Of a stretch of 64,000 bases of DNA, positions 6,601-63,906 are shown piece by piece; the first letter of the stretch is position 1, and the number at the start of each line of letters is the position of its first letter. The stretch comes from a virus. Where the stretch lies: positions 10,952-74,951 of IMG/VR virus record IMGVR_UViG_3300010413_000015; one strand, 5' to 3'. The position numbers and the translations under genes are program-made. The notes below the pieces were generated by a model. The model saw only the letters and a list, made by a program, of their open reading frames with translations, was not told the DNA's origin and did no database searches.

Positions 6601-8612
6601 GTGGCCCTCAGTACCTGTCCGGCCGTCAATCCACTAACAGTGTGGTAGGTGCCCAGACCACTAGTAGTGGCCAATACGTGGCTGCCGGTACCTGGCTGCT
6701 CATTGACCCACTTGCTGGTACCCGTGTTCCAGACGAGCGCATCCCCATTACTAAGGCTGCCCACATTCACATCTGTGTGCACAGCGCCGTCTGTAAGGCT
6801 GTGAGTGCCCGTGCCAGCTTCCAGGTCAATGGCAGTGTCTGTGCCATGCTTGACCTTCAGATGTCCGTCTGCAGTATCTACGTAGAGCTGCGCCCAACCT
6901 GTACCAACTCCCGTGGCACTGACCCCGTCCGTCACAAGAAGGCGTTCCAGGATGGCATTTCTCCATCTGGACTCCAAGTGACCCAGGTCCGTGCTGTTGT
7001 CTGTGGTAGGTACCAGGCTAGACCGGAACTTCCCTGTAGCGTCTAGCCACATGGTCCCATCCGCAGTCTTGATTCCCGCAATGTCGATTAGGAGCCCCTG
7101 TGGGGGACTTCCAAAGCTAGGGATGAGACCTGGTGTCCAGTCCGAGGGCCCCCATCCTTGCTCCAACATGGGCCGGTCGAAGCTGAAGTTCGTCGTTGAG
7201 GCTTGGGGAGCGCCTATGGACATGGTAATTCTCATGGCTGGGTGGTACCCGTCTGCGCCGGCAGGCGTAGTAACCTGTTGTGAGAGGCGAATCCACCCAT
7301 CTCCCACGTCGTCCTCTATAACCTCGCCCACCTCCGTTGCGTAAATCTCACTCTCGCCCGTCTTGTACCAGAAAACCTGTGGCGTGATGACGCTGTAGAG
7401 GTCTTGTCCTATGAGGGCGGGGTCCAACGATTGTAGAAAGTCCGTGCCGTAGCTAGGCTTTACGAACACAGATGCTGTAAAACGGTGCCCCTCCTTCGCT
7501 GCAAGAGTAATGGGCGCGACGTAGTCAGGCCCAAAGACGATGTCACAGGTCTGAACTTCACCCGAGGGTACCGTATCTAGATAGGGCCCAAACGTGACCT
7601 TAATGCCCTTGCCTCCCCCCAACCCAAAGTCACCGTAGCTCCAGGAGGAATAGGGGTTGCTCTGAAACCAGTCCTCAACCCACCAAAAGTCAGGGTAGGA
7701 CCCGACCTTTCGTTCCCAGTCTGCGTTGTAGGCCATCTGTACGCCCTTCTTCCGTCGGGCAAACCCTCGAATCCAGGGACTGGCTGCGAAGTCGCTCTCG
7801 TTGCCTGCCAGGTCCACACTCGTAAGGTTAAAGTACCGGGGCCGGCCGGGAGTCATTGAGATGAACACGTGAGAGCTGCTTGCCGTAGTGCTGGCCACAA
7901 AATCGTAGCCTCCAGTGGCGTATTCATCATCTGCCACGTACAGCATAAAGCTGTCGAGGTCGGGCGTCCCTGACTTTTTGGGCCCTGTCCATGCAATGCG
8001 GAGCCCGTCAGCCACACTCTCGATAGTCAAGTTCATGGGCGGGACAGGGGCCATGGTGTCTACAAGTAGCTCCGGACAGACAGACCATGGAGAGAAGTTT
8101 CCCCAGCGGTCTATCTCACGAACGCGAACCTGCAGCTTCATTGCCGGGAATAGGCTGAGATGCTCCTTTGAGGCCTCGAGTACCGGATAGGGTCCATACC
8201 CCCAGGCATGGCCAATCCTTCTGGCATCTACCTGGTAGGTGTCCAGGTCCATACGCTCTGCTGGGGTCCCTCCAAACTCCCAGACGAAGTAAGTGCCCCG
8301 GTGCGTCTGCTTGATGGCCAGTTCTTTGGGCGTTGGTGGCTCAGGCCTCTTTGCCGTTGCAGCATCCCTGGCTCCTGACCATTCAATGATGCCTGTCACA
8401 TACCACGTGCCGTGTGCGTCTACCCATGTGAGGAGCACTCGGTCGTTGCGGTGGATATCCTTTGCTGTCAGGGGGGCAGCTACAGGAACATTGCGGACCA
8501 ATTGCGTCCGGCCGGTCAGAAGCACCGTGACGGTGCTTTCCCCAACGAACATGACCCGGCCAACAGTTGTGCCTATGCTTGATGGTGTCTCAAGGAACGC
8601 TGCCTTTGCCAT
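3666..8612 (-). CDS. Large tail fibre / host-specificity protein
   Basis: 1648 aa; FN3-like segments (SVDLAGNESD), CBM-like region, Gly/Thr-rich beta repeats, HxH motifs (DHTHG, THVHA); position after the tail tip genes. Confidence 0.75.
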   Translation of the reverse strand: MAKAAFLETPSSIGTTVGRVMFVGESTVTVLLTGRTQLVRNVPVAAPLTAKDIHRNDRVLLTWVDAHGTWYVTGIIEWSGARDAATAKRPEPPTPKELAIKQTHRGTYFVWEFGGTPAERMDLDTYQVDARRIGHAWGYGPYPVLEASKEHLSLFPAMKLQVRVREIDRWGNFSPWSVCPELLVDTMAPVPPMNLTIESVADGLRIAWTGPKKSGTPDLDSFMLYVADDEYATGGYDFVASTTASSSHVFISMTPGRPRYFNLTSVDLAGNESDFAASPWIRGFARRKKGVQMAYNADWERKVGSYPDFWWVEDWFQSNPYSSWSYGDFGLGGGKGIKVTFGPYLDTVPSGEVQTCDIVFGPDYVAPITLAAKEGHRFTASVFVKPSYGTDFLQSLDPALIGQDLYSVITPQVFWYKTGESEIYATEVGEVIEDDVGDGWIRLSQQVTTPAGADGYHPAMRITMSIGAPQASTTNFSFDRPMLEQGWGPSDWTPGLIPSFGSPPQGLLIDIAGIKTADGTMWLDATGKFRSSLVPTTDNSTDLGHLESRWRNAILERLLVTDGVSATGVGTGWAQLYVDTADGHLKVKHGTDTAIDLEAGTGTHSLTDGAVHTDVNVGSLSNGDALVWNTGTSKWVNEQPGTGSHVLATTSGLGTYHTVSGLTAGQVLRATGATTAAFQQLSHTDLGSVSADQHHAGFVGLEDTSATAVTPAADDRIQLTSANNILSIVAGTNILTFTINQANISHDSIADVSANDHHNQQHTLSGTDHTGDLAWTQIDSLIAAPTISLGTAYAEGSAQTMIRSDATLVVFDTTLPTTIAAGTSSSATGSASVAARRDHTHGIGTAAPSTNLSVSSSNTEGTGTSFSRATHVHAIDSSNSPGATASILATTAAGLLTLQHLTVSGNFSVGKVDSHLIPLLTDTYDLGSSTLLWRKGWLSEMEAILFVENTASVMGGWFIVPHSSGTLAEDVDDTETDIDFGSSLTVNDFILLRGNNQVEYMQVTAFVSGTIYTVTRNLDGSGANAWPQGHVWVNLGYDGDGRVELDAQTGGPRISMIRQGTSYNQQTELVRLGDLNGWGPYSTETWGMAIGNYSGGDYLKYDPTNGLVIAGDGSGVTNINGGNIQTGTVDTDQLTADAVTAEKIDVTNLAAVSASTGALTVDNTLTMSTGAVLKCGATAYDSGTGYWLEYNAGTPRLFLGNASAGKLLWDGSGLKIYSTTSAYIDLSGTTISLYNNSVATLVLQADGDVRFGEYNASKANLFWDADPGDLLLRKGGTDIIKLEGLTGDAIFGQTGSGHANMWWDADGGGSTGQLKFRAGTGTVQLYIDTDGSLVCGAGAIELNALGLTFATGTARANKVTWYDGATYYGGIWTAYGSSIADLYLESTLTTGDARVFLRAVSGATSNYLQIESGTTDRITLWVGASDVLAVEQTTIKIHTATDLYAGAGLRVGDTTNDPPDNDVTIAGGLTVGGTTDPAQGYALVQAGLRVGSLGAGYDNDIILNGGIYAGATDVDPDAGMVQSNVGMSGWFPFGNYALVAYQMTTNGGRPYAGTISRDMTIRSWHQAVWVDTTNNASNYWTINLKNGSGTNRLSFDTSAMSADAWNMYSSTGLSTSLTAASEFMLYVQVAKTGSPGAISLPCPAIFVT
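5881..5893. repeat. 13-bp quasi-palindrome, copy 2
   Basis: TTTCCGACGGAAA, extended here to CAACT-TTTCCGACGGAAA-AGTTG. Confidence 0.95.
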
Positions 8613-9163: not shown

Positions 9164-12100
9164 TACGCAAACTCCTTCTCGTCAAACTTGGCACTGGCGT
9201 CGTTGAAGGTAGTAGAATCTACTGAGAAGTCCCTAAGCCGGGTGATGACCTCGCAGTCAATGGCAGGTTTCCCCTCCTCATCGGTAGACATGGACCATAC
9301 AAACGCTGCGACCGCCCGGTCTTCGCTTCGGTCTGCATCGGTCCACCAGTCCTCAAGGAGAAGTGCCGGGTCTGGTGCGTGTAGCTTGTAGGATACCTCA
9401 GACGCCTGTTGTGAAACTAGGACCAGGGCCCTTCGTGCCCCCTCCATTGCCTCCACTTTCCCGCTGACCAGTGCCGGGTTGGAAATCTGGAGCATCCGGA
9501 GCGGCTTGCCTACTGCGGCCTCCCGGTCTAGGAGGTACACCCTGTCCTCCATGACTTCCATTTCAATGATACTTGCCTTGTCCTGTAGGGACATCTTCTC
9601 ATCTATGGCTGTGAGGTTGGTCGTGTAGTCCCCACTGTAGTACCCCTGGCTTCCCTCAAAGCGACTGATGCCCAGGTGCCCATTCTCGTTCTCAACCAGT
9701 TTTACCTGCTTGCCTTCAAAGAGCCTTCCCAAAGCCATAGACAGGTCCTCCCCAGAGTCCCAGGCAAAGGAGTCGAGGACCTCAGAGAACTCCGCATGGC
9801 TGCAAGAAGTAGTACTTACACCGTTGACTGCCAGGTACCCACTGGGCCATACGTGCTCCAGCGGAAACGCACACATAAGTGACCCCGTGGAATAGGCCGC
9901 AATGAAGTCCTTATTCCCTATAACGCGAATGAGGATGTCCCGATTGTCATTCCCCTGGTCTGGAGGCCGGAGGTATACCTGCTTCCCGAGATGGGTCTCG
10001 ACGTACTCCGGACTGGGAGAAGTGTCTCCTGTAGAAGTGATCCTGTACAGGTCGGCCTGGAGCTCTGCAAGTCTCAGCCGGAATCCAGAGTAGTGAGCGG
10101 GGCCGGTGGTGTTCTTGTTTGTCAGCCAGAAGTACACGTCAAGGTAGTTAGGAGAGTTTGTGAGCTGGTCACCTATCCAGGTCATGTCAATGCTGGTGTT
10201 CACCATGACACCATTCGAGACTCCGGGAGTGATAGAAACATCCCCCTGCACATCCTCGTCTAGCGTGATGCCGGCGAGCTCGAGGGCATTTCGGGCTATG
10301 TCCATGGCGGTCCAGACCGTAGTGTTCTCGTAGAACCAGATCCAGTCAAACAGGCACTGGGGAGCTAGTTTGCCGGTGCCGAACTGCTTGTAGACCCCAT
10401 AGGGAGTGCCGGGGACGGGAACAGAAGTGAAGTCTGGAGTGACATATAGGATTTCCCCACCATTAGTGGTGGCAACCTGTCGCTCCTGGTTGCCACAGAT
10501 TAACCACTTGCCTCCTAGTGTCTTTGGGAACGTCTGCCCGGTGTCCTGAATCCAGCCCGAGGTTGCACTGTCCACATCGCCATACTTGATGGCTCCCTCA
10601 TAGTCCTCAAAGTCCTCGACCACAAGGCCGAACTGGTAGTTTGCATCTGGCCAGGTGGGGGGCACCCAGTCCTCGTCGGCAAAGTCTGTAACCTGGACCC
10701 ACTCATCGTCCGTACTCTCCCGAAGAATGCGCACTTTGATGAATCCCTGGTCAGCAGCCACCGTCATTTGGTACCACTCATCTGTGTAGAAGTCAGGTCC
10801 TGTCCCCCAGGTGATCGGAGCGCTAACTACACCATCAATCACCTTGCGGAATACAATCCGCACGGGTCCGCTGTAAATGCGCGAGGCCCCGGCCATGTAG
10901 TAATTGTCTTCGTCCTTGTACCAGAAGGCCAGGTAAATGCCTTCCGCAGCAACCAGGGGCTTGAATCGAGTAGTAAAGAGAAAGCCTGGCGTTCCCAGAT
11001 TGTGGGGAAACAGCGCAAGGCCGGGCTGCTTGCACCAGAGCTGATACCTGGCTGACTCAGGGGACTTGTGCGTCACCCAGTCCCCTGTCACCTGGCGTAC
11101 CGTGAGACGAGGCTGACGATTCTCCATGTTGAAGTCACTGTACAGCCTATAGGGACTCTCATACATCTTTGTGCCCAGGGGCCTGTAGCTCAGGGACCCG
11201 GTAGCCCTGGCGGTTTTGCCAAGGGCAGTGACGTTATAGGCGCTACCAAGGGAGGTCTCAGTCAACTCGGCATCCACAACATCTGCTGTGCAGAATAGCC
11301 CTGTCTCCCCACTGGCGCCTATGACGACAGACAGCTCGTTGCCGGCAACGAGAAACGCCTCGATAGCAGCATCCTCCAACCCTGACGCGATGAACTCGGG
11401 CGCACTCCCAGGGCCTGAGTAATTGGCAGCGAATGAGGTAATAGTAGGGATGGTGTACCTCTCGGAAGAAGGGTCGGCCCCTATGGTAATATTGGCCTTG
11501 GCACGGGCGACAGAGGCATTCCCGATAAGGTAGACGTACTCATCTCCACTTCTGTAGAACAACTTGCCTCGCAACTCACTTGAGGTGACGAACCCCTCGT
11601 CCCGCCAATCTACCATGTTCTGGCTGGAAATGAGCCCAACGTGCCGGGCATAGGGCTCGTCATCCATTCCAACGGCCCACCTGGTGACTGTTGCCCAGGC
11701 CCGGTCTCCAATTGTATTCACCCCACTGACCTTAGCCCTCATGTTCCCCCACTGACTAGACGGAAGAACCTCAAAGGGCGCACTGGTGGCCCAGCTCTCG
11801 TGAAACAGGATGCTGGCCGAGCTCTCCGGGCCAAGGGCTTGCAGGACCACGCCGGCATTCCCGCCCCAGGGCCGCATGTTTGACGTAGTTGCCAGGCCTA
11901 CCCCGCCCCACTGGGCATCCATGTTGTGGAAGTCAGTCACTGGATTGGCCAGGGGGTAGCACTTCGTCGTAGGCCTCCAGTAGACAGGCCAGGTATCGTT
12001 GTTGTCCACCAGAGACTCAACAGCAAGCCAGGGCCCTACATAGTAAGTGGCCACTACGACAATCTCGCCGTCTATGAGAATGGCATTCAGCGAAACCGAC

Positions 12101-12642: not shown

Positions 12643-13088
12643 AGCGGCAACCTCTGCACAATGCGCACTTCAGCAATAACCCATGTGCCCAAGGGGTCGT
12701 ACTCAAACTGTAGATTCAGGTCCCCTCGTAGTTGGCCTGGCCAGTATCCGTCATCTCCAAATGAGAGGACCTCAAGGTCTGTGGCCAGCCATGCGTCCAT
12801 AAGGTCATTGGCGTCCCCGACATAGATGTCTTCCTGGCCATCGTTCATGGTGGGATATGTCCCGTCTGGGGCCTGCACGATAAGCCTACCTGCCCATTGT
12901 TTGAAACCTCGTCTTGTGCCGACAGAACTCAGGAGGCGTCCATCATACAGGGATATGCCATAGCTAGTTGCTCCCTCGAAGATGGGCCCAGAGAAACCTT
13001 CTACCAAAACAGCGTAACACCGCTTCGAGGAGCCACTGTCCCACTTTAGGAAAAGTCCGCCCCTGCTGGTTGGAAACTCTATTGCCAC
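12639..13088 (-). CDS. Distal tail (Dit-like) protein
   Basis: 149 aa immediately downstream of the tape measure (synteny only). Confidence 0.5.
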   Translation of the reverse strand: MAIEFPTSRGGLFLKWDSGSSKRCYAVLVEGFSGPIFEGATSYGISLYDGRLLSSVGTRRGFKQWAGRLIVQAPDGTYPTMNDGQEDIYVGDANDLMDAWLATDLEVLSFGDDGYWPGQLRGDLNLQFEYDPLGTWVIAEVRIVQRLPL

Positions 13089-16000
13089 AATCCCCCCCTC
13101 ATTCTCTGCCTGGAGGCAGTCTTGTTCAGCTCTGCCTCAAACTTCCTCCATATCTCGGCCGCCAGTTGTCTCTCGTCCTGCCTCCCTCCTTCAACCGAGA
13201 TAGAGACGTTCATATTTCCGACGGAAAATCCGCTTGCGGTCAGCCTGCGGAGTGCCATGTTGGGGACAATGGTCCCATTCTGGTCTGGAACGAAAATCTC
13301 TGGTCCCACTTCACCCACCAGGTAACTACTCCCGGCTGTGACATCCCCCCCACCAGCCAGGCTGTTCCCGCTTCCACCTCCATCCCCTTGAGACTGGAAC
13401 ATACGGTTCAGGCGGTTCTCGATGCGGTCCAGAAGGTTCTGCCAGGCCTTGTCAAGGCTCGAATCCCTCTTGACGCTGCTCTCGAAGTGACCAATTAGGG
13501 TGTCCCACTTGCCCCAGAGGTCTCCGTCTTTCGAGAAATCGCTGAGCTGCTGCCTCAGGAAGGCAGCATAGGCATCTTGGGTCAGGTCCTGCAACCGCTG
13601 GTGCTCTATCTGGCCAGGGAAGACCACTTCCTCGAAGTACTTCTGTTCCTGGGTCATTTGGGCCAGGCGATACATCATATCGTCCTCAGCAATCTCTTGC
13701 TGTTTCGCGGCAATCGCCTGCTGCATCGCCGCCATAGCCTCTGCTTCTCCCATTTGCTCCTGGAGGTGCTTCATTTGCAGTGCAAACGACTCATCCATGT
13801 GCTTCTTGGAAAGGTCGAAGTTCTCCTGCATGTGTCGCTTCTGGAGCTCATAGTTCTGCGTCATGTGCTCCTTCTGCATCTCAAACTGCTCGGTCTCTAG
13901 ACGCTTGATATCTTCGTAGTGTGATTCCTGGTCTTTGAATGCCTGCGCCTGTTGGGCCCACAGCTTCTCCTGTCGCCCTTCCTCAACACCCCTACGCTTC
14001 TCAGAGACACCATAGTCCTCTTCCATACGTCCCCGCTGGCGGAGAAGCTCCTGCTTCTCGCGCCCGGAGGCGAAGCGAATGGCCCGGTTGATATCTTCCA
14101 TCCCACGGGTGTACTGCACCCCAGCCTGTTGCCGGTTGAACGCCATATCTTCACGGCCCCAGCGCTGGCCCTGCATCATCTGTTGCCATTGAACACCGAA
14201 CTGCCTTCTCTGGAACTCGGTGTTGACACCCCACATTCTCTGGCCTAGGGCAAAAGACGCTTGCTGTTGGGCATAGCCCTGCTCCAGGCTCTCCGTCCCT
14301 TGCTGGAAACCAAGGTTCAGCCGTTCCTGGCCCTGGCGATACTGAAGGCGAGCGCTCTCCATGGCTCGCTCAATACCGGCCCTCTGCTGTTGCGCTGCCA
14401 TTGCCGCAGCCGCAGCCTGCATTCCGTACAGCTCTCGGGACTGTTCTAGCTTCAGTTCCGCTCGCTGGATTTGGCCTATCATGCCCATCTGGTAGGTTCT
14501 GCCACCATAGCTAGAGGTTGCCCACTGGCCAGTGCCCATGCGGTATGCCTGGCTCTGGCGTAGTTGGTTCCAGGACAGCGCCCTTGAAGCAAGCTGGCCT
14601 ATGCCGTAGATACCACCACCAGGCCCTATCTCGTGTAAGGGCATAGCCCCCTCCACCAGGGGCATCCCCATAGCACTACGGAACCCACCTACGGCCCCCT
14701 GTGCCTCTGCGCCAAAGACCCCTTGGGCCGCACTGTATCCCAGGGCAGAGCTGGCAAAGTTGGCCATCTCCCCAAACTGGGCGTACTCGAAGGGAGTCAT
14801 CTGTCCAGAGGCTAGTGCTGCCTGCAGGCCCTGCTCAAACTGCCCGGCTACTGCCCCGGCCATGCCAAACCCTCTGGCCACAGCTCCTTGGCCCATTACA
14901 GACTGGGCCCATACCTGGCGAGCTGCAGGAGAAACGCCACGGGCTGCCATTGCCTGAACCCGGCCCTGCAGGGCTCGGGCATTTCCGCCGAGGTACTGGT
15001 AGATTTGACCCCCAAGGCCGGCCGCAGCCTCATATTGGGCCATTCCCTGAGCGCTTTGCCATGGAGCATTGGCCATGAACCCTATGGCTTCTGGACTTCC
15101 TGCCGCAAAGCCATACTCTTGTGCCGCACCAACGCCAATGGCTGCCTGTTCCCTCCGAAGCATCTGCTCTGGGGTTACACCCGGAGGGGTATAGATGACT
15201 CGCCCGTCAGGGAGCTCAACCATTTGGCCTTCAAGTTCCTGCTGTAGCCCCTGATAGTATCGGGCCGCAGCCTCTGGACCAAGGCCGCGCATGTCTGCGA
15301 ATGTGCGATACTGGCTGGCAATCTGTGCCGTGGCTCCACCAACTGCTGCGGTCTGAGGACCAAGTGTTTGCCCGATTCTCTGAGCTACTGCACTACCAGG
15401 TGTATACCCCATGGCAGAGACAATGGGCTGCATGCCATACCGGGCCTCTTGAAGAGCTGCAAGCTGGGTGGTTGTGACCCCACCAGCAAGCTGGCCCATG
15501 TACTGCTGTAGCATTTGTCCTGATACTCCAACTCCTATCTGTTGGAGTTGTCCTGCAACCCCTGAGGCCATGAGGAAGTTCTGTTGCCCGGCTGCTGTTG
15601 TTGGGATGTAGGGAGACAGGGCCCACATCCCTGCGCCCGTCCCGATCCCCAGATACTGGCTTACTTGCTTTAGGGTAGAGGCCATCCCGGGAAGCTGCCC
15701 ACTAATGGCTGCTGGCCCGAGCTGCTTGGCCAGCTCATCTACTCTTCCTTCGTACACGGCCTTTGGCCCGTATCCGAGCTCGGCCAGATAGCTGAAGGTT
15801 TCGTACTTCTTTGCTGGGTCTAGACCTGGAATATCCAGGTTTTCGATGTGGAGGCTGGCCCGGTCAATCTCTATCTGGCCAGACTTCACATACTGCGCAA
15901 CACCCTCGCGCAGTTGGCCTGCGTAGTCCTTGTCCAGAATCGAGCGCAAGCCCATGCCAACCCCTGTCCCAAGAGAGAGGTCGCCCTTGGTAGGCGAGCC

Positions 16001-19000
16001 CCCACCAGCCATGCCCTTGAGCCAGCTAAAGGCACCTCTCTGCGTCTCAGGCTCTGTGGCCAGACCGAGAAGCTCCCGGTAGACATTTCCGGGGGCAGCC
16101 TGTTCATAGGCCTGCCCAAGGAGAAGCCCCCCGGTCACAACGCCACCTGCCAGGGCGGCGATTGGGCCCATTCTAGAGCCTATTCCCATCATACCTCGCC
16201 CTAGAAGGCTTTCTCCCCCTAGCGTCTTTCCGAATCTGCCGAGCACTGACGCGGCAATGCCGGCTTTCGCACCAAACTCGAGTCCCTTGAGAATAGGTCC
16301 ACCAACTGCACCCAGTCTTTCACCGGCCCCATATGCGCCAGAGGGACCACCTAGCGTTGCCAGTATCTCACTGATACCAGCTTGCCCTCGAAGTGTGCCC
16401 ATACCGAAGCCCTGGGCGAAGGCCTGCTGGCCAGCCTGGGCCTGCATAATCCTGCCCATGGGACTATCCATAATGGACTGTGCAGTACCCCCCATCTGTG
16501 TAGCAAACCCTATCTGGGCACCAGCAAGCCCCCGTGCCTGTTCCATAGCACGGTTCACTGGTCCCCCAAAGATTCGCTCGGCCGCTGTCCAGCGGAAGTA
16601 TGCACCGCCAAAGGAGAACTCCTGCAGGAGCTGGTCGAGGCCCTGGCCAAGTGTGCCACGCATGCCCTGTGGTCTCTTGGGAGCCGGCCTGCCCCTTTGT
16701 CCACCGGTAGCCTCATAAAGGTCGTACTGGAACTGCAGGGCGTCTCGTGTTTCCACAGCGCCGATAGTCTCTGTGAGGGCTGGCTCGTTCTCGATCTTCT
16801 CCAGTTTCCTGCCAAGACGTTGCATGTTTTGGGTTACTGTCGCAACCACATCTTGGGGGACACCTGCTGCAGTCAGACCCTGTGGACCAACTTTTGCCCA
16901 TTGCTCCCTAATGTCCTGGGCCTGGCGGAAGGTCTTGGTGAAGGACTGTGCATCTTTCAGCATCTCCTTCTCGGCCCGAGTCAGGTCTCTCTGTACGGCA
17001 ATGGTCTCCCTAAGCTCTGGGGTCCACTGCTTCAGATGGTCTGCCACCTCATCCAGGGTCTTCCTCATCGACCCTGACATCCACAATCCCAACTCCCAGG
17101 GCTTCCCGCTTCCGGCTGTCTGCCGGGGGTTCAGGTCACGTTGCTGTTGCCCCTGAGAGGGCGGTACAATTGGTGCGCCGGGGTCTACACCCGGAGGCAC
17201 CCAGTTAGGGTCAAAGTTGGGGCCGGGCATCCCCGCCAGGGGGTCTGCCGGGTCAACTGGTGGCCTGTTGGGAGGCGGGGGAGCACCGGGAGGCGCAGCC
17301 ACTGTAGGCCTGGCGGCTGCCGGCCGTCGGCCTGCCTGTTGGAGATGTCTCCTAAGCTGGCCAGGTCGCGTAACTGGGGACTGAGCCATTGCAGGTGCTG
17401 CAGTCGCAACCGGAGGCGTAGGCTGTGTGGCTGCTGGTTGAGTCACCTCAGTTGGTGGTGTAAGATTGGGTTCCGGCCCCATCTCTGGTGGCGCCACAGG
17501 GACCCTAGGTGCTCGCTCTGGGTGTGGGCTCTCTGCAACTGGAGGTTCTGCACCAGGTGTGGCTAGCCAATCTGCCATCCCAGACGCTTCCAGGGCCACT
17601 GCTTGTTCCTCAATACTGACCCCTTGTCCGGCCCCCTTCTTCAAAGCAGTAAGCCTGTCTTGCATCTCTGACTTAAACCTGAGAAGAGTGTCGGCCAAGT
17701 CCCGGCCCACGCTCCTGGCCCCAAACTCTCCGTACAGGTTGGCACCGTGCTTCTCTGCATACCGACTAACGGCTCCTGCCCACTGCCCACCGATTGCCTG
17801 TCCAGAGGCGGCCTCCCTTACCCAGTCCTCATGTGTCTGACCAGCCTTCATCATTCGGGGAAGAATCTTGTATCGCTGCTCGGGTGCGGAGAATCGCTTG
17901 AACATCATCGCAAACTGCTGGGCCTGCTTCTGGTTAGGCCCGGAGAACATTGCACCCGCTTCTTCGGGAGACACAACTCCCTGCTGTACAAGCTCGGCAA
18001 AAGCGCCGACACTCTCCTTGCGAAGTCCTGCAAGGTTTCGCAAGGTTCCGGTGCCTACTTTCTCCCATTCCCCGGTGCTGCGCATAAATGCCTTGCCCCA
18101 GGTAGTGGTATTCATGAGCGCATGAACACTCATGACGTCCTGGGGGGGGATGGCGGGTCTCTGAGTATACCCATAGCTGCGGTTCCAGATAGACTGTACG
18201 GCAGACCTGGCTGTTTGGCCTACCTTCCCAGGAATCTGGAGTGCCCTACTCATAAGCCTTCGCATGTCCTGGAATCCAGGACCTATTGCATTGTAGAGCT
18301 CCCGGTTTTCCTGAACAAGTTCCTCGACCTTGCCCTCATCCATGGTATGGTAGTCAAGGGCCTTTCTCCTGACAATCTCCATGGCCGCTTGTAGGTCTTG
18401 GTCTCCGGGAACCATCTCAGCAGGGAGGCTTCCAGCGCCCTCAGACTGCACACGCTTGCGCCCAATCTCACGTACTCGTTCTGGAGAAAGCTCTACACCA
18501 GCGGCGTCGTAGAACTTGCTACCTTGCACCTGAGCCCCACCAGTCATCAGGGCATAGGCAATGTCTGCGTCAAAGTCGCCGCCAGCCATACCCTGTAGGT
18601 ACTCTGACACTACCATCCGGTTGGGGTCATAACCTAGGCCCTCGATAAGCTCTCGGGACACAGTAATGCCCTGAGCTGCACGGTCAAAGCTGGACTCTCC
18701 CTGAGTGGGGAAGCGAATCATGAAACCTGCTTGCCCGGCCTCACGGTCTGGCAGGTACATCTCATTGATGCCCAGTGCCTTAGAGCCAAGCACCTTGTAC
18801 CCCTCCAGGTACCTCCTGCCAGGTGTTACTCCCTGGGCCCGTCGGAGGCCCTGCTCGGACTCAGAAATCTTGCGTTGCTCCTCCATGACGGTCCTGCGAT
18901 ACTCGACAAACGGCGCCTTCTCCTGATTCAGAAGGGACCGGACCATGCCAAACTGCCCTCTAAGGTAGCGAGAGACCTCTGTTTGTTCGAGGGCACCTTC

Positions 19001-45405: not shown

Positions 45406-45555
45406 TTATGCGCTCGCACATTGAGAGGGGGGTCACACTTTGGAAAGCCGTATTAGTAGTATAGGGTGAGTCCGGGACTGTTGCTTGGGGGGGGATACCC
45501 CCCCCTCCGCACCCCTATCCCGGGCTTAAATCTTTCCCTATACCAGGAGGCAGCG

Positions 45556-45900
45556 ATGGCCAGAATCGAGGGCCATGCGCGGGGCAAGCTCGCAGAGCTG
45601 CAGCTCCGACGGTGCGTCTCCCCACAGGTTGCCAGTGACCTGGAGAAATACCTCCACCGACTGGTGACCCACAGTGATACAGCCATTGTCGTGCAGTTGG
45701 ACGAGGCTGTATCAGATCAGACTAGGGACGCCTGGTCCGAGCAAGACCTCTTGGTTGCAGTGGTACGCCGGGGCACGGTGTATACCGTGTTCTTGAGCCG
45801 CTGTGACTATGGGGACCCCACCAGGGCGTGGGCCATTGGCAAGTTCAGGGTGGCACGCGCCATAATTCTTGGAAAGGAGGTGCTCGATGGATTGTCCTAA
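45556..45900 (+). CDS. Hypothetical early protein
   Basis: AGGAGG RBS before ATG 45556. Confidence 0.6.
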   Translation: MARIEGHARGKLAELQLRRCVSPQVASDLEKYLHRLVTHSDTAIVVQLDEAVSDQTRDAWSEQDLLVAVVRRGTVYTVFLSRCDYGDPTRAWAIGKFRVARAIILGKEVLDGLS

Positions 45901-46210
45901 CCTTGAGCACAGACTTGGGTACTGGGTGAACAACCCGGCCACCCTCGCAGTACAGGTCCTGCCTGACAGCAGGGCCACCTTCCCTATGGTGCAGGTCCTC
46001 TTCCGTACAGAGCCATGGCCTGGCTTCACGGAAGAGCGCCTGACCAAGGTGCACGACAGTGTGGTGGAAGCACGCGCCACACTGCAGGCCCTTGGATGGG
46101 CCGTGGCCAGGGTAGGCGTGTATGATGTCTATACACCCACCGAGCCCACACCCTCCTGGCTGAAGGGCATGGAGGATGCCTACGAGAACAGGGAGCATCC
46201 CTGGTTCTAG
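45887..46210 (+). CDS. Hypothetical early protein
   Basis: AAGGAGG RBS before ATG 45887. Confidence 0.6.
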   Translation: MDCPNLEHRLGYWVNNPATLAVQVLPDSRATFPMVQVLFRTEPWPGFTEERLTKVHDSVVEARATLQALGWAVARVGVYDVYTPTEPTPSWLKGMEDAYENREHPWF

Positions 46211-46219
46211 CATCCTCCC

Positions 46220-46310
46220 TACAACTGAATACCTCGCAGAGGGCACGCATGCGCCTTAATTGCCATGCGTGTAATGCGCCAGCGCCAGTCCCAAGCCTGG
46301 GCACAGTACC
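46220..46310 (+). ncRNA. Twister ribozyme, circularly permuted (type P5-like)
   Basis: CGCA-GAGGG-P1 hairpin (CACGCATG/CATGCGTG)-TAA-TGCG...GCCAG-TCCCAAGC-CTGG; core elements and both pseudoknot partners present. Confidence 0.75.
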
Positions 46311-46351
46311 CTTCAGAGGACAAGAGCCTCAGGGGTGCGGAAAGGGCCACC

Positions 46352-46747
46352 ATGAACAAGACAGTTCATGCGGACCTGAAGAATCTGAACGCCGGCAAGA
46401 TCATTGAGGCATACCGCACGGTGTGCAAGAATGACTCTTTCACAGACCATGCTGTGGTGTGGTCTGTGGCGGCCAGCCTTGTGCGGTACGCAAAGGCCGG
46501 CAGCCCCGACATCAGCCTCTACTACCAGTCGGTTGCTCAGTACAGGGCAGCAGAGGGTAGGAACCAGGCAGAGGTTGCAGTGGCAGTGCGTTGGTCCCAG
46601 TGGCTTACTCAGCACATGGACAGGAATGACTGCCCTCGCACTATCCAAGCCCAAGAGATTCTAGTCTCTAGAGTTTGGATGGGCCTACAAGTACAGCGCA
46701 ATCCTGAGCTGTACCAAGAAGCCCTAGACCGCATCTACCCAATGTAG
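46352..46747 (+). CDS. Hypothetical early protein
   Basis: AAAGGG RBS before ATG 46352. Confidence 0.6.
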   Translation: MNKTVHADLKNLNAGKIIEAYRTVCKNDSFTDHAVVWSVAASLVRYAKAGSPDISLYYQSVAQYRAAEGRNQAEVAVAVRWSQWLTQHMDRNDCPRTIQAQEILVSRVWMGLQVQRNPELYQEALDRIYPM

Positions 46748-47082
46748 TAGATGCGTACAACTGAATAATTCCCTACTGTGCCCTAATTGCCAGTGGGGTG
46801 AAACCAGCGTATAACACACCCAGAGTCAAGTCCCGAGGGGTGGGCCCAGTACTGGGCAGGGCTGGAGGGCAGGCCGGCAGCAGCAGACAGGTGGCTGCCG
46901 GCGATCTTGGGAATCCCCGAATGGGGTAATATTTCCAACCCAAATCCTGTTCCCAAGCTATGGGCTATGGCCTAACCGGTAACAAGTGAGGCCCCGGGCA
47001 CGCAGCTTACCTTACCCCTGAACTATGTGCCCGGGGGTACCGCTGTTTCTATGCTGGCGAGGCTTCCAGGAGTAGGCAAGAT

Positions 47083-47095
47083 TTTCCGACGGAAA
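47083..47095. repeat. 13-bp quasi-palindrome, copy 8
   Basis: TTTCCGACGGAAA, intergenic just past the terS stop. Confidence 0.95.
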
Positions 47096-47115
47096 CCTTC
47101 TGGAGAGTGGGGGGA

Positions 47116-47643
47116 TTACTGGACATTGACGACAATCTCCCCATCCTCTACCTCTATCTCCTGAGTGACTTGGCGCAACTTCAGGCGTTTCCCCTGATGC
47201 CCCATGACCGCATCAATAATCCGACGAGCATCAGAACTCCCCCCCACCCCGCTAGACTGACTATCTCGTTCTAGGTCCATCTTCACATCACGGAGAAACC
47301 TCGCCGCCTGAACCGCTTCCTTACTATCGCCAGACGTGGCGATATTCGACATGTTCACAAGGACCCGTACCCACCAGGTAGATAGGACCTCCGATGCTAT
47401 CGCATCAAGGCCACGCATTTCGGAAAGAATTGCCTCCTGGATAAGAGGGTTCTTGATGCTGTCATAGAACACCTGGCGAGAGACATTCGCCTTCTCGCAG
47501 GCTGCCTTGATGTTCGTTGCCCCCTCCTGAAAGGCAGCACGCACCGCTAAGACACGGTCCCAGTCACGTTGGTCCTTTGGAGTGAGCAGGACGGTCTCCT
47601 TCTCTACTGCCTCTGCTGGGATGATTTCCACACTCTTGTTCAT
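47116..47643 (-). CDS. Probable terminase small subunit
   Basis: N-terminal HTH NIKAACEKANVSRQVFY, helical core, EAVQAARFL. Confidence 0.55.
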   Translation of the reverse strand: MNKSVEIIPAEAVEKETVLLTPKDQRDWDRVLAVRAAFQEGATNIKAACEKANVSRQVFYDSIKNPLIQEAILSEMRGLDAIASEVLSTWWVRVLVNMSNIATSGDSKEAVQAARFLRDVKMDLERDSQSSGVGGSSDARRIIDAVMGHQGKRLKLRQVTQEIEVEDGEIVVNVQ

Positions 47644-48285: not shown

Positions 48286-48298
48286 TTTCCGACGGAAA
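48286..48298. repeat. 13-bp quasi-palindrome, copy 9
   Basis: TTTCCGACGGAAA, intergenic. Confidence 0.95.
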
Positions 48299-48521: not shown

Positions 48522-48637
48522 TCGAACCCCGCAGTACAGAAATACAACCGAATACAGCCCCCCGGCCAGCCTTCATTGCTGACCACCAGGGGGTGATCGG
48601 GTAGAGGACGAAAGGGCCTCGCCCATTGGAGGGCTTG

Positions 48638-49189: not shown

Positions 49190-49290
49190 TCACTGCCTGT
49201 CGGCGCCTTACAGCTAAATACATGGCCCCCCGCCCAGGGGCCAGATCGGGGTGAGACCACAATAGGGGGTCCCCCAATTCGGAGGCTGGT

Positions 49291-49773: not shown

Positions 49774-50180
49774 GCCTCACCACGAACAGAGTGGTGTAGC
49801 CGCTCCACAGGAGCGCAAGGGGGAGGCCTGCCTGGTTCCTTCCCCTGTTTCTGAAAATCCAGGAGAGGGTAGGACGTTGAAAACGGCTGGGGCACAGGGC
49901 CGTGAGTAGACGTATGTGTGCTGTGCCCAAGGTAATGGAGGGTCCCCTTGTCGCAAATTGGCCCTGTGTAGGCAGCATGCCGCCTAACCAAGCATGCCGA
50001 GCCAGGGACTGGTATCCCCTTGGTCGTGTACGAGTATGATACCACGCAGATGACCTAGACTGCTCGTGTACCCCAGCACTGAGCAGATGAACACAGGGGA
50101 GGTAACACCCGCCACCTGTAGTGAGTGCGGGACATGGGTACCCAGGGGGAGGCAGGCCACCTCCCCCGATCTTATCTTAT
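49774..50180 (+). ncRNA. Candidate structured leader / ncRNA
   Basis: About 400 nt without a credible ORF; many hairpins; long-range pairing of 49825-49833 with 50150-50158. Confidence 0.4.
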
Positions 50181-50224
50181 TTCTAAGGGCTAGGCCCACG
50201 GCGTGGGCAGAAAGGTGGTGTATC

Positions 50225-50638
50225 GTGGCAGACTACCTCATCAGGTTTGACGGTGGTTCTAGGGGAAACGGAACCGACAACGCTGAGGGCTATGGCTCCT
50301 ACAGCATCGAGGCGGCTGATGGCCGCAAGGTCCTGCAACGCCTTGATTTCGGGACCGGCGTGACCAACAACGAGGCCGAGTACCGGGCGCTCCAGGCAGC
50401 CGTGGTAGACCTCCACGGCCGCATCAGCAAGGTGTCTAGCCCGGCCAACTTCTCCCTGGTTATTCAGGGAGACTCGAGCCTGGTCATCAACCAGCTTCAG
50501 GTGACCAAGCCGTGGAAGTGCAAGGCCCCAAACCTCATCCAGTACCGCAATTTCGTGCGGGACCTTCTGGCCACCTTTGGCAGCGTCTCCCTTCAGCATG
50601 TGGGAAGGGACGCAATGGTTGCAGAGTTCGGTCATTAG
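50225..50638 (+). CDS. rnhA: Ribonuclease HI
   Basis: FDGGSRGN, TNNEAEY, GDSSLVINQL, WKCKAPNL. Confidence 0.85.
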   Translation: MADYLIRFDGGSRGNGTDNAEGYGSYSIEAADGRKVLQRLDFGTGVTNNEAEYRALQAAVVDLHGRISKVSSPANFSLVIQGDSSLVINQLQVTKPWKCKAPNLIQYRNFVRDLLATFGSVSLQHVGRDAMVAEFGH

Positions 50639-50767: not shown

Positions 50768-52966
50768 ATGAAGCTCGCCGTTCTCGCAATTCTCACCCTG
50801 GTGTGGGAGGGGACCGTGCCGTACCTCCACACACTCTACGAGGCTCTCGTGGGAGAGCCTCTGGCAGTAGTCCAGGTCAGCACCAAGCCCAAGCACCGCC
50901 AGTGGATGACACGCCTGCTGGTAGGGCTTCAGGACAAGGGGTGGCACCTGGACTTTGCCACAAGTGCCAGAAAGAGCGGACAGGCCATCATTTCCCAGAC
51001 TGGGAAAGTGTCCTCGCTCTTCTGGCGCACGGCTGAGGAGGCCATTGCCTATGGCAGTATCCTTCTCACGCCGTGCTGGGGTGCGTACCCCCAGTCCATG
51101 ACCCTGAAGGTTCGGGTGGTGGAGGATGGGGAGTACGACACCGGGGATTGCCACGGCAAGGCGAGCCGGGCAGTCTATGCCGCCCTTGGTGGTGTTGTGC
51201 AACAGGCCGCACAGTTCCGCCTAGGGGTCCTGGCCGGTGGCTTGCTGGCCAAGGGCACATTCTGCATCCCAGATGTGTCCCTCGCCTGGCCAGACGGGGT
51301 AGACCTGATTCTGCCCCGGAGCTGCTTCAAGAGCAGCAACAAGCCTGGCCCTGGCACGTATACCTGGGACCTGGTCCTGGGTGTCGTGAACTGGAGCAAG
51401 CCCACCCCGACCAAGATGGGCTGGCAGATGCTCCAGTGGTTCAGTTGGGCAGCGGTAGAGGCCGACATCCTTCCCAGGGTCAAGGAGGGAGCAGCCCAAC
51501 TGGTTGCCGCCCTGGCAGATGTCAGGGCACTTGCCGAGCTTCTCCGGCTATACTCTGTGCCCAGCATCGACACAGAGGACGGGGAAGATGACCAGGCCGA
51601 GGTCTTGCTCATCGACGTTCTCCGAGCAGACCACAGTGGCTACCTGTCCCGGCACCCACACGTAGTTCGGCGGGTGAGCGACATGCTGCGCCGACGGTGG
51701 CAGCACCTCGCAACCGGTGGTGGGCAGTTCCTGACCGGCCTTATGGGGCTACCGGATGACACCCTGCCATTCGGGGTGGTGGCCACCAGCGACATCCCTG
51801 TCGGAGATGTCCTTGTGACCCGGTATCCCATCAGGTTCTGGGGTGACGTTCGGAAATGGGTCAACGTCGCGCCCGTCCAGAGCCTCAAGGGCACCATCTG
51901 GATGTCCCATGAGACCGCTGCCGTGCTGGGTGGCGATTTCGACGGGGACTACTTCCAGGTGGTTCCGTCAGCCACCTATCCCGCCCTGTCCCAGGACATG
52001 GAGAACTGGGCCGACCGCCCCACTGTGAATGTGGTCAAGGTCAAGGATAGGAGGGCCACCCCCCTGAGTGCCCAGGGGCTGGCCGAGGTCTTTATGAGCA
52101 ATGTGGACAACATGGTGGGTAATGTGGCCCTGCTCATTGCCCGTGCTGGCGCTGCCGGCAACCATAACGCAGTTGTCCAACTTGCCCAGGAGTTGCAGGT
52201 CGCCGTTGACAAGTTCAAGTTCAACGTAGACAACGACACCGACTTCATTGATGCCTGCAACACGTCCATTCCAGACCTCACATGGGCATGGGACCGTGAA
52301 CACCGCGATGCCTACCATGCCCGGCCGATGAAAGTGCACGAGCGGGATATGGACACCATATCCTGCCTCATCCGGGAGGTCAATGCCCTGTGGGTTCCTT
52401 ACCAGGGTATGGCCCTTCCCCTATGGCACTTCACCGGCCTGTTCTCCAAGCCCGACCAGCACATGGATGCAGCTCGTGGGCTGGCAGTGAGGTATGCTGC
52501 CAATGTGCGCACGGCTCTCCGTGCCGGGGACAAGAAGGCCATCTCTAAGCTCTTCAAATCCCTGGAGGCGTGGTCGCGGCAGGTGGAGAATCCGACCGAG
52601 TGGGCTGCTGCCATCTGGCATGCGGTTCACGCGGAGAATGCCAAGGGCACCGGCTCGCTGGCCTTTGCTGCGTTTCCGACGGAAATTGCAGAGAGGGTGG
52701 CCAGCCTGCCGTCCACCCCCGAGGCACCGCGCAATGCCACCATTGTTGGCCTGGAGAAGAACGAGTGGGCCAACAACGCGAACGACCTGGTAGGTGAGCA
52801 GCAGGTGATGTTCGATATCACCACGTTGCATGGCCAGGTCCGGTTCTCCGCCGTGGTAGACGGGCGGGTGGTCGGCATTGTCTCCAAAGAGACCCCTGTC
52901 CCCCAGGGGACATTCACCATGGGTCTCACGGTAAAGGGCGCTTGCGTGTACGCGAGTGCCTCCTAG
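50768..52966 (+). CDS. Single-subunit two-barrel RNA polymerase (YonO / cellular-RdRP-like), non-virion
   Basis: TGDCHGK, QFRLG...LAKGT, VTRYP, LGGDFDGDYF (51935-51949), LQVAVDKFK. Confidence 0.85.
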   Translation: MKLAVLAILTLVWEGTVPYLHTLYEALVGEPLAVVQVSTKPKHRQWMTRLLVGLQDKGWHLDFATSARKSGQAIISQTGKVSSLFWRTAEEAIAYGSILLTPCWGAYPQSMTLKVRVVEDGEYDTGDCHGKASRAVYAALGGVVQQAAQFRLGVLAGGLLAKGTFCIPDVSLAWPDGVDLILPRSCFKSSNKPGPGTYTWDLVLGVVNWSKPTPTKMGWQMLQWFSWAAVEADILPRVKEGAAQLVAALADVRALAELLRLYSVPSIDTEDGEDDQAEVLLIDVLRADHSGYLSRHPHVVRRVSDMLRRRWQHLATGGGQFLTGLMGLPDDTLPFGVVATSDIPVGDVLVTRYPIRFWGDVRKWVNVAPVQSLKGTIWMSHETAAVLGGDFDGDYFQVVPSATYPALSQDMENWADRPTVNVVKVKDRRATPLSAQGLAEVFMSNVDNMVGNVALLIARAGAAGNHNAVVQLAQELQVAVDKFKFNVDNDTDFIDACNTSIPDLTWAWDREHRDAYHARPMKVHERDMDTISCLIREVNALWVPYQGMALPLWHFTGLFSKPDQHMDAARGLAVRYAANVRTALRAGDKKAISKLFKSLEAWSRQVENPTEWAAAIWHAVHAENAKGTGSLAFAAFPTEIAERVASLPSTPEAPRNATIVGLEKNEWANNANDLVGEQQVMFDITTLHGQVRFSAVVDGRVVGIVSKETPVPQGTFTMGLTVKGACVYASAS
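52673..52685. repeat. 13-bp quasi-palindrome, copy 10
   Basis: TTTCCGACGGAAA in the RNAP gene. Confidence 0.95.
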
Positions 52967-53260: not shown

Positions 53261-53605
53261 ATGAAGAACCAGTGGAAAATCGAGCAGCTTGCGACAGCCC
53301 TATACCTCAAGGTCAGAACAGGAAAGTATTCGCCTTGGGAGGTGTCAGACCTTGCTCTGCGCATTTCTGACCTGGCGATAGACGAGTACAGGAGCGCTGT
53401 CGCGCAAGACTGTGAGATTGCCCAACCGGGCGTTGACAACGTTCTTAATCGTGGTACAATATCCACGTGCGGAACAGAAGACCAAACCAAATCTATACAA
53501 CCAAAGGAGAAGGAAAATGTTCCACAAAGTGAGTTTGATTGGACATCTGGGCCAGGAGCCGCAGCTGCGCTACACGCCGGACGGGATTCCCGTCTGCAAC
53601 ATTAG
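53261..53605 (+). CDS. Hypothetical protein
   Basis: AAAGGGG RBS; 3' end overlaps the ssb promoter and start. Confidence 0.4.
   Translation: MKNQWKIEQLATALYLKVRTGKYSPWEVSDLALRISDLAIDEYRSAVAQDCEIAQPGVDNVLNRGTISTCGTEDQTKSIQPKEKENVPQSEFDWTSGPGAAAALHAGRDSRLQH
53433..53460 (+). promoter_or_regulatory. sigma70-type promoter for ssb
   Basis: TTGACA-16 bp-TACAAT with GTGG. Confidence 0.6.
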
Positions 53606-53987
53606 TGTGGCGACCAAGGAGAGCATCAGCAAGAGGCTGCCGACTGGCGACGAGCGCTCTTGCCCTCAGGGCTGGACCACGAGCCAGAACGGCAAGAACT
53701 GGGAGTTGACCACCTGGTTCCGCGTGGCGCTATGGCGCGGCCTGGCCGAGACGGCCAACCAGTACCTCCACAAGGGTTCCCAAGTCTTCATCGAGGGGAC
53801 CATGTCTGGGGAGGCCAGCGGTGGCAGCCAGGAGCCGAGGGTCTGGACGGCGAACGACGGAGCGCACCGCGCCAGCTACGAGATTACCGCTCGCACCATG
53901 AAGATGCTGGGCGGGAATCGCAATGGCGATGCAGGCAGCACGGCGCCGGTCGAGTATGAAGAGGAAGACCCTCCCTTGCCCTTCTAG
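53517..53987 (+). CDS. ssb: Single-stranded DNA-binding protein
   Basis: KVSLIGHLGQEPQLRYTPDG, TTWFRVALW..LAE...YLHKGSQVFIEG, acidic tail ending LPF. Confidence 0.95.
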   Translation: MFHKVSLIGHLGQEPQLRYTPDGIPVCNISVATKESISKRLPTGDERSCPQGWTTSQNGKNWELTTWFRVALWRGLAETANQYLHKGSQVFIEGTMSGEASGGSQEPRVWTANDGAHRASYEITARTMKMLGGNRNGDAGSTAPVEYEEEDPPLPF

Positions 53988-54020
53988 CAGTACGGGCAAG
54001 TAGTTCTACAGATGAATAGA

Positions 54021-54057
54021 GTGGGGCAGGTTAGGCCGGGACCTGCCCCACTTTTTT
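54021..54057 (+). terminator. Intrinsic terminator
   Basis: GTGGGGCAGGT-N9-ACCTGCCCCAC-TTTTTT. Confidence 0.85.
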
Positions 54058-54208
54058 CTATCGCCGCGACTCCAACAGTAGCAGCCGGCCTAAGTGCAGC
54101 ATGGCCAACCGGTAGCCCTCGTGCCTGATGGCCCATAGAATCAGGCGGGGCCCCGAGGCACCGTCCTCAGGTGGAAGCAGTTGCCAATGGGCCAGTAGTA
54201 GCTCTCGC

Positions 54209-63774: not shown

Positions 63775-63906
63775 GGCAAGGGTAGCTCAGTGGTAGAGCA
63801 ACGAAAAAGCGAATCACCATACCAATTATCCCCTTGTAGGGGGGCGGCCGTGATTTGTTCTAGCCTATGGAGCCGTTGGTCGCAGGTTCGAATCCTGCCC
63901 CTTGCC
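63775..63906 (+). tRNA. tRNA-His-like RNA (anticodon ATG) with a 59-nt insert at 29/30
   Basis: Acceptor GCAAGGG/CCCTTGC plus G-1:C73; D arm GCTC-AGTGGTA-GAGC; T arm GCAGG-TTCGAAT-CCTGC; anticodon stem ACG^GC/GCCGT once 63804-63862 is removed. Confidence 0.65.

Follow-up and report, generated by a model that had tools for sequence, protein, structure and literature searches.

A type-P5 twister ribozyme between two phage genes and the repeated gene-end cassette that shares its P1 hairpin

The window analysed here, i.e. the whole stretch of 64,000 nt, comprises bases 10952-74951 of the 74,951-nt IMG/VR record IMGVR_UViG_3300010413_000015. Its genes point leftward up to ~45238 and rightward from 45466. 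The leftward block includes the portal gene and a 2693-aa minus-strand protein (13079-21160) carrying a ComEA-like HhH module. The rightward block starts with small ORFans, which are followed by an RNase H-like gene (50066-50638), an RNA polymerase (RNAP) gene coding for a 732-aa protein of the two-barrel YonO/RdRP type (50768-52966; PF05183, 9.5e-10; phrog_34895, 1.5e-42) and an SSB gene (53412-53987). On the minus strand, a gene at 47116-47643 that scores well in codon usage is convergent with the rightward genes, and hence this ‘early’ block is not one operon.

The ribozyme described below sits in a 141-nt gap between two ORFan genes of the same strand, 24 nt past the stop codon of the first and 51 nt ahead of the SD-preceded AUG of the second. 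The upstream gene (45869-46210, plus strand, 113 aa) has a positive codon-usage score and ends with the TAG at 46208-46210. Its product belongs to no Pfam or PHROG family and, among 1.8 billion representatives, matched only itself and two further proteins weakly. The downstream gene (46352-46747, plus strand, 131 aa) is preceded by an SD-like GGAAAGGG at 46339-46346, and no Pfam or PHROG family and no homologue was found for its product. Since both flanking genes are ORFans, a syntenic comparison of the ribozyme locus is not possible. Peptide-pattern scans with both flanking proteins and the RNAP retrieved no close relatives from IMG/VR, and the GenBank phage collection contained no match. The ribozyme is identical in DNA contigs of three other studies that cover it (four runs from four studies compared), and the sole difference across the compared contigs is an A>G exchange at 47068. 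A search of public runs turned up no RNA run containing this region. The position given by the first-pass annotation, between two co-oriented small genes, applies, within a block also holding the RNase H, RNAP and SSB genes. Judged by their position, the flanking genes may be ‘early’ ones, as it had called them.

In the source record the downstream gene already starts at the ATG at 46274 (157 aa, P0001), within the conserved UAAUGC of the ribozyme and 1 nt past the predicted cut. This start is probably over-extended, and the SD-preceded AUG at 46352 is the likelier one. A leaderless mRNA with its AUG 1 nt behind the cleavage site was considered and discarded as a general feature: the respective frame is not preferentially open in 47 other phage copies, and the in-frame AUG at 46274 is a 1-in-3 coincidence.

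The twister class (Roth et al. 2014; Rfam clan CL00120) is reviewed in PMC5408937, PMC6154101 and PMC6765202. Its hallmarks are the stems P1, P2 and P4 together with two pseudoknots, T1, consisting of three Watson-Crick pairs between L1 and L4, and T2, in which the conserved GC after P2 is paired with two L4 nucleotides (PMC5408937, PMC6154101). Cleavage takes place between a U and the conserved A adjoining P1, and three circular permutations exist, each named for the stem that holds the termini (PMC5408937, PMC6154101).

Both strands of the window were searched against all 4227 Rfam families using Infernal. The positions 46235-46300 on the plus strand match Twister-P5 (RF02684) with 57.3 bits (gathering score 37.6; E 2.8e-9), whereby the model is covered from position 1 to 58 of 58. 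This is the sole ribozyme match in the window. A permissive Rfam scan yielded nothing further of note beyond the default scan, a rescan of a 5.6-kb block gave the same twister match with E 2.4e-10, and the complete record contains exactly one Twister-P5 match, its first 10,951 bases showing a tRNA only and no ribozyme in the Rfam search. A separate observation concerns 63776-63906 (plus strand), where an Rfam tRNA match of 50.5 bits has its halves ~70 nt apart at the anticodon-loop position. It was missed by ARAGORN with default settings, while in intron mode an odd tRNA-His(gtg), its intron 43 nt long, was reported; the tRNA gene could either contain an intron or be disrupted.

The first-pass annotation had described a permuted twister from the letters alone, and the order of elements (5’ arm, P1 hairpin, UAA, P2, P4) together with the 57.3 bits for RF02684 bears this out. 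All parts that it had listed are in place: CGCA at 46235-38, GAGGG at 46239-43, the hairpin at 46244-71, TAA at 46272-74 and TGCG at 46275-78, then G-CCAG at 46284-88, TCCCAAGC at 46289-96 and CTGG at 46297-300. The objection that a covariance model might not recognise the element falls away, as the match lies well over the gathering score. A chance resemblance in GC-rich intergenic DNA, for which nothing speaks apart from the shortness of the motif, is effectively refuted by the E-value, which was 2.8e-9 with all families searched over the entire stretch, and by a sequence that fits the family together with all five helices. As judged from sequence and alignment, 46235-46300 is confirmed as a genuine, circularly permuted type-P5 twister ribozyme.

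The predicted structure is built as follows. The 5’ arm (46235-46243 in the cmscan alignment) consists of the P2 5’ strand (C)GCA at 46235-38 and GAGGG at 46239-43, of which G46241-43 take part in T1. P1 is a closed hairpin (46244-46271) with an 8-bp stem (46244-51/46264-71), a bulged C46252, a GC/GC clamp (46253-54/46262-63) adding two further pairs, and a 7-nt loop CTTAATT; folded together with the box upstream of it, it reaches a z-score of -2.9. The UAA of the model alignment follows, and the predicted scissile bond U46272/A46273 is the U-A step directly 3’ of P1 that the family uses (PMC6154101, PMC5408937), in agreement with the cut proposed by the first-pass annotation. Positions 46275-46279 hold the P2 3’ strand UGC (46275-77) and the conserved GC of T2 (46278-79), which is nearly invariant (41-42 of 43 phage copies). 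P4 (46285-46300) pairs CCAG at 46285-88 with CUGG at 46297-300 including an invariant inner G-C pair, and encloses L4 UCCCAAGC at 46289-96, as seen in cmscan and in a 44-sequence alignment. Within L4, C46290-92 are complementary to G46241-43 and form T1, whereas G46295 and C46296 pair in T2.

Two registers can be drawn for P2. In the covariance model P2 has 4 bp and T2 of the window copy shows one mismatch. Of the 43 distinct aligned copies, 29 have a P2 of 3 bp instead, GCA/UGC with the conserved GC directly behind it, and in this register T2 of the window copy is complete with G46278-C46296 and C46279-G46295. The 4-bp helix CGCA/TGCG proposed at first stands in its GCA/UGC part, but the C46235-G46278 pair is optional and G46278 is more likely engaged in T2.

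For comparison 48 Twister-P5 cores were gathered from IMG/VR by pattern, and 43 of them were aligned with the window copy. All 22 columns that are invariant among these 43 are present in it. Over P2, T1, the outer P1 pairs, T2 and P4 of the aligned phage copies 96.6% of the cells are paired compared to 80.4% in shuffles, and the covariation score of 0.365 (0.083 in shuffles) was reached by none of 500 shuffles; controls with slid registers were paired to 27-48%. T1 contributes one compensatory A-U at its middle pair in the family alignment. P4 contains the exchange that had already been noted as compensatory in CCAG/CTGG: A46287-U46298 is the sole A-U at a place where 37 copies have G-C and three have C-G.

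Like the RF02684 family in general, the window copy has a loop-closed P1, ends that are open at the P5 position, the conserved core, P2, P4, T1, T2 and the U-A site. It differs by a P2-P4 linker of 5 nt and by lacking a convincing P5 stem, a helix that is optional in the family. CTGAA at 46223-27 could pair with TTCAG at 46313-17, the sole candidate for a P5 3’ strand, but these strands lie within the box, whose conservation has other reasons, and a stable local hairpin, respectively, and most phage Twister-P5 copies leave no space for P5. The hairpin in question (46306-46338, with an inner GAGG/CCUC stem) is supported by folds and alignment and lies between ribozyme and ribosome-binding site. 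The third difference to the family is a 12-nt apical region of P1 with a conserved sequence that is common to non-ribozyme hairpins of the same phage.

Could the element be an inactive relic, a twister by descent which now merely provides a hairpin like its relatives in the genome? It is a single copy not conserved in relatives, nested-only folding favours pairs competing with the active fold (CCUC/GAGG within 46232-42 and an alternative 3’-arm hairpin involving the first CCAG at 46279-82), and T2 has the register ambiguity mentioned above. Decay would however be expected to strike the 22 invariant positions first, and all of these are intact. Moreover the score lies 20 bits over the threshold and in the mid-range of 77 phage copies (38.6-68 bits), and the one stem position that deviates has changed in both strands so that pairing is kept. 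We thus consider a relic very unlikely.

The ribozyme class itself is ordinary; the novelty lies in the main hairpin, which doubles as a repeated gene-end element. This element is a cassette composed of a TACAACYGAATA box and a hairpin with a conserved apical loop, with five copies in this phage and two in a related one (locus L038). The 12-mer occurs exactly at 46220, 46756 and 48543 and as one variant at 49209, always on the plus strand, and no box is found on the reverse strand of the whole genome. Cassette 1 has an exact box TACAACTGAATA at 46220-46231 and a 3-nt spacer CCT next to the ribozyme arms. Cassette 2 (46756-46798, plus strand) consists of the box, ATT and a hairpin with the loop CCTAATT, 8 nt past a stop codon. 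Cassette 3 (48543-48594, plus strand) is located 21 nt past a stop codon and combines TACAACCGAATA with a longer hairpin and the loop CTTCATT. Neither has ribozyme arms; among all copies only the first carries the two. Variant 4 (49209-49243, plus strand) has TACAGCTAAATA and a hairpin with a different loop, and variant 5 (54007-54058, plus strand) has TACAGATGAATA, a 15-bp hairpin and TTTTTT with a z-score of -5.7; they start 19 nt past a stop codon, in the latter case that of the SSB gene. With its T6 the hairpin of variant 5 has the appearance of an intrinsic terminator.

The loop motif GCCYTMATTGC is found exactly at 46253, 46780 and 48569 and nowhere else in the window. Each occurrence is 24-33 nt downstream of a TACAACYGAATA box, such that box and motif come together only at 46220, 46756 and 48543. 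Copies 1 and 2 fold alike: both have a 7-nt loop, the GC/GC clamp, one bulged base and an 8-bp stem, the stem sequences being different. When the copies are aligned, spacer and hairpin of the twister copy are separated by exactly nine nt, CGCAGAGGG, that copies 2 and 3 do not have; these nine nt are the ribozyme 5’ arm, and the 29-nt 3’ arm follows the hairpin. P1 is a copy of a hairpin conserved in the lineage, and therefore the ribozyme amounts to a pair of short arms, 9 and 29 nt long, flanking an element that also occurs on its own. Other cassette copies were also considered as hidden ribozymes and discarded, as no Rfam match was obtained in the 5.6-kb block even at E 10. Two further features are seen near these copies: ~320 nt without a convincing ORF (46800-47115) follow cassette 2, and a hairpin similar to that at 46306-46338 follows cassette 3 at 48599-48624.

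L038 is the closest available relative, its RNAP being 44% identical. It exhibits the same box and loop at 7040-7115, where the hairpin is followed by TTGTTTGT and, together with this T-run, looks like an intrinsic terminator. A second cassette (9505-9560) lies directly after a TAG, and no twister was found in the L038 locus by the Rfam search. The form common to the cassettes of both phages reads TACARNYRAATA, ~3 nt, then a hairpin often with an apical GC-CYUMAUU-GC. A search for further cassettes gave no match in IMG/VR. Nine matches in genome contigs belong to unrelated taxa where ~8 were estimated by chance, giving no host clue. As a side observation, a palindrome TTCCGACGGAA occurs at 47084-47094 and 48287-48297, shortly downstream of window cassettes, and the related TTTCCGCCCGGA(AA) at ~7120-7133 and 9627-9640 of L038, likewise downstream of cassettes. 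They may represent an operator-like site that the lineage has kept.

The cassette is a lineage-conserved, strand-specific gene-end element. Its role could be terminator-like, protein-binding or nut-like. A lambda-type nut site consists of a linear boxA and a boxB hairpin with conserved loop. By layout alone the cassette resembles it, since its box is linear and conserved and lies a few nt ahead of a hairpin whose loop is conserved while the stem varies; the cassette is also confined to the transcribed strand and repeated in an early-type operon. In contrast to lambda nut, no N-like protein was identified here and some cassette copies resemble terminators.

The box could alternatively be a promoter for one of the RNA polymerases of the phage. 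Transcripts would then begin immediately ahead of the 5’ arm, and the ribozyme would trim a triphosphate leader of ~40 nt containing the hairpin, thereby releasing a small hairpin RNA and a 5’-OH mRNA instead of splitting two cistrons. Promoters of phage-encoded polymerases are often identical between diverged phages. The strict strand-specificity of the box, its restriction to the block with the RNAP gene and its identity between two phages with only 44% identity of their RNAPs are all in line with such a function. In every copy, however, the box follows a stop codon by 0-21 nt and has a hairpin immediately behind it, and in the cassette alignment conservation is limited to the 12 nt with nothing conserved upstream. 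Moreover the hairpins at 54007 of the window and at 7040 of L038 run into T-runs as in terminators, which would make little sense just past a start site, and copy 2 would fire into the convergent gene. On account of the T-runs and of the gene convergent with copy 2, a promoter role for the cassette is less likely, and we regard leader trimming by the twister as unlikely.

The sharing of the hairpin allows a further reading, in which the twister was built on, or converted to carry, an existing hairpin that is read by a factor via the TACAACYGAATA box and the loop CYUMAUU, so that cleavage would be coupled to its reader. We put this forward as a doubtful option. If true, the cut would give read-through RNA the same hairpin-capped 3’ end that termination produces elsewhere, or the bound factor would gate cleavage. 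In that case ribozyme arms would have naturally colonised a regulatory hairpin, and the twister would be under the control of a protein or polymerase.

To place the window copy among other phage twisters, we considered their genomic layout. The Rfam search gave 77 Twister-P5 matches in loci of 26 IMG/VR contigs, often four to nine per locus. For the 48 pattern-matched copies the distance from the upstream stop codon to the ribozyme has a median of 0 nt (35 of 43 within -2 to +4), the median distance to the next start codon is 23 nt, and 38 of 46 have an SD-like motif; on the opposite strand around these twisters no such stop/start spacing is seen. Proximity of twisters to phage genes and a possible processing of polycistronic RNAs have been proposed before (PMC6765202), and the layout of the phage copies supports this proposal. 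The packing of stop codon, ribozyme and SD is extreme in the arrays of L002-L029; as an aside, a TAG overlaps the first two letters of the ribozyme (T, then AGCAGAGGG) in 16 of 43 cases. One of the twister-bearing viral contigs, L028, moreover has a DUF3800-XI RNA (RF02975, 63.8 bits) at 11422-11469, adjoining a tRNA.

As in these arrays, the window copy has the orientation of its neighbours and lies downstream of a stop codon and upstream of the ribosome-binding site that follows. While the arrays reach up to ~9 matches per fetched locus, here there is one per genome, set into a box-hairpin cassette, and the gaps are 24 and 51 nt compared to medians of 0 and 23 nt. The window phage does not have a ribozyme-punctuated operon, i.e. 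several copies, one per junction, with tight spacing, but its single copy would act in the way that one ribozyme of such an array does.

In the first-pass annotation the ribozyme had also been tentatively tied to the minimal phage RNAP. Relatives of this polymerase were retrieved at 40-46% identity from metagenomes, and eight IMG/VR and 22 metagenome loci represent 29 distinct ones, L059 being the same contig as one IMG/VR locus. None of the 29 contains a twister or another ribozyme within the flanks fetched, and conversely no RNAP relative is encoded in the 26 twister-bearing viral contigs. The proposed tie is hence not upheld. The ribozyme is not conserved in this phage lineage and is a sporadic acquisition outside that polymerase’s system.

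Since the ribozyme has an intergenic site between genes of the same strand, its likeliest role is cutting polycistronic RNA. We favour, with a probability of roughly 80%, that 46235-46300 acts as a functional type-P5 twister which cuts the transcript of the genes at 45466-46210 and 46352-46747 and thereby uncouples the cistrons. As soon as the 3’ arm (46273-46300) is transcribed, it would dock on the 5’ arm and the P1 hairpin via P2, P4, T1 and T2, and the RNA would cut itself co-transcriptionally between U46272 and A46273. The upstream RNA would keep a 2’,3’-cyclic phosphate one nt past the stable P1 hairpin. Such a P1-capped 3’ end may be terminator-like and exonuclease-resistant and mimic a terminated transcript; the predicted fold of this 5’ product has a z-score of -2.7. 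The downstream RNA would carry a 5’-OH, the P4 hairpin, the second hairpin at 46306-46338, a free ribosome-binding site and the AUG at 46352, and the two cistrons would be uncoupled by the cut. A protective hairpin at the 5’ terminus of the 3’ product was also considered and discarded, as its fold is no better than shuffles (z-score -0.45). We infer cleavage in vivo from homology, and with it an effect on stability or translation. A cut standing in for termination gains indirect support, since P1 copies a gene-end hairpin that resembles an intrinsic terminator in other copies.

A comparable arrangement is known from phage T7, whose early-gene RNase III hairpins R0.3-R1.3 are cut by a host protein enzyme leaving 5’-phosphate and 3’-OH ends. 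In both systems a polycistronic early RNA is or would be cut at an intergenic hairpin such that the upstream message keeps a 3’-terminal stem. Unlike the T7 sites, the RNA of the window phage would cut itself, leaving 5’-OH and 2’,3’-cyclic phosphate ends.

The role of bacterial and phage twisters is still unsettled (PMC6765202). The Twister-P5 class and intergenic phage twisters were already known, and the window copy is a further member. What is new is that the P1 hairpin is part of a gene-end cassette repeated in this phage. The locus offers a clear case of a twister between cistrons, in a phage whose RNA polymerases are unusual and where the ribozyme is not tied to the YonO-like polymerase type. 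It also provides a natural comparison: the gene-end hairpin occurs once with the ribozyme arms (38 nt in total) and, both in this genome and in a relative, without them. Such paired cassettes could show what self-cleavage contributes beyond the hairpin itself, and how twisters of type P5 originate or spread.
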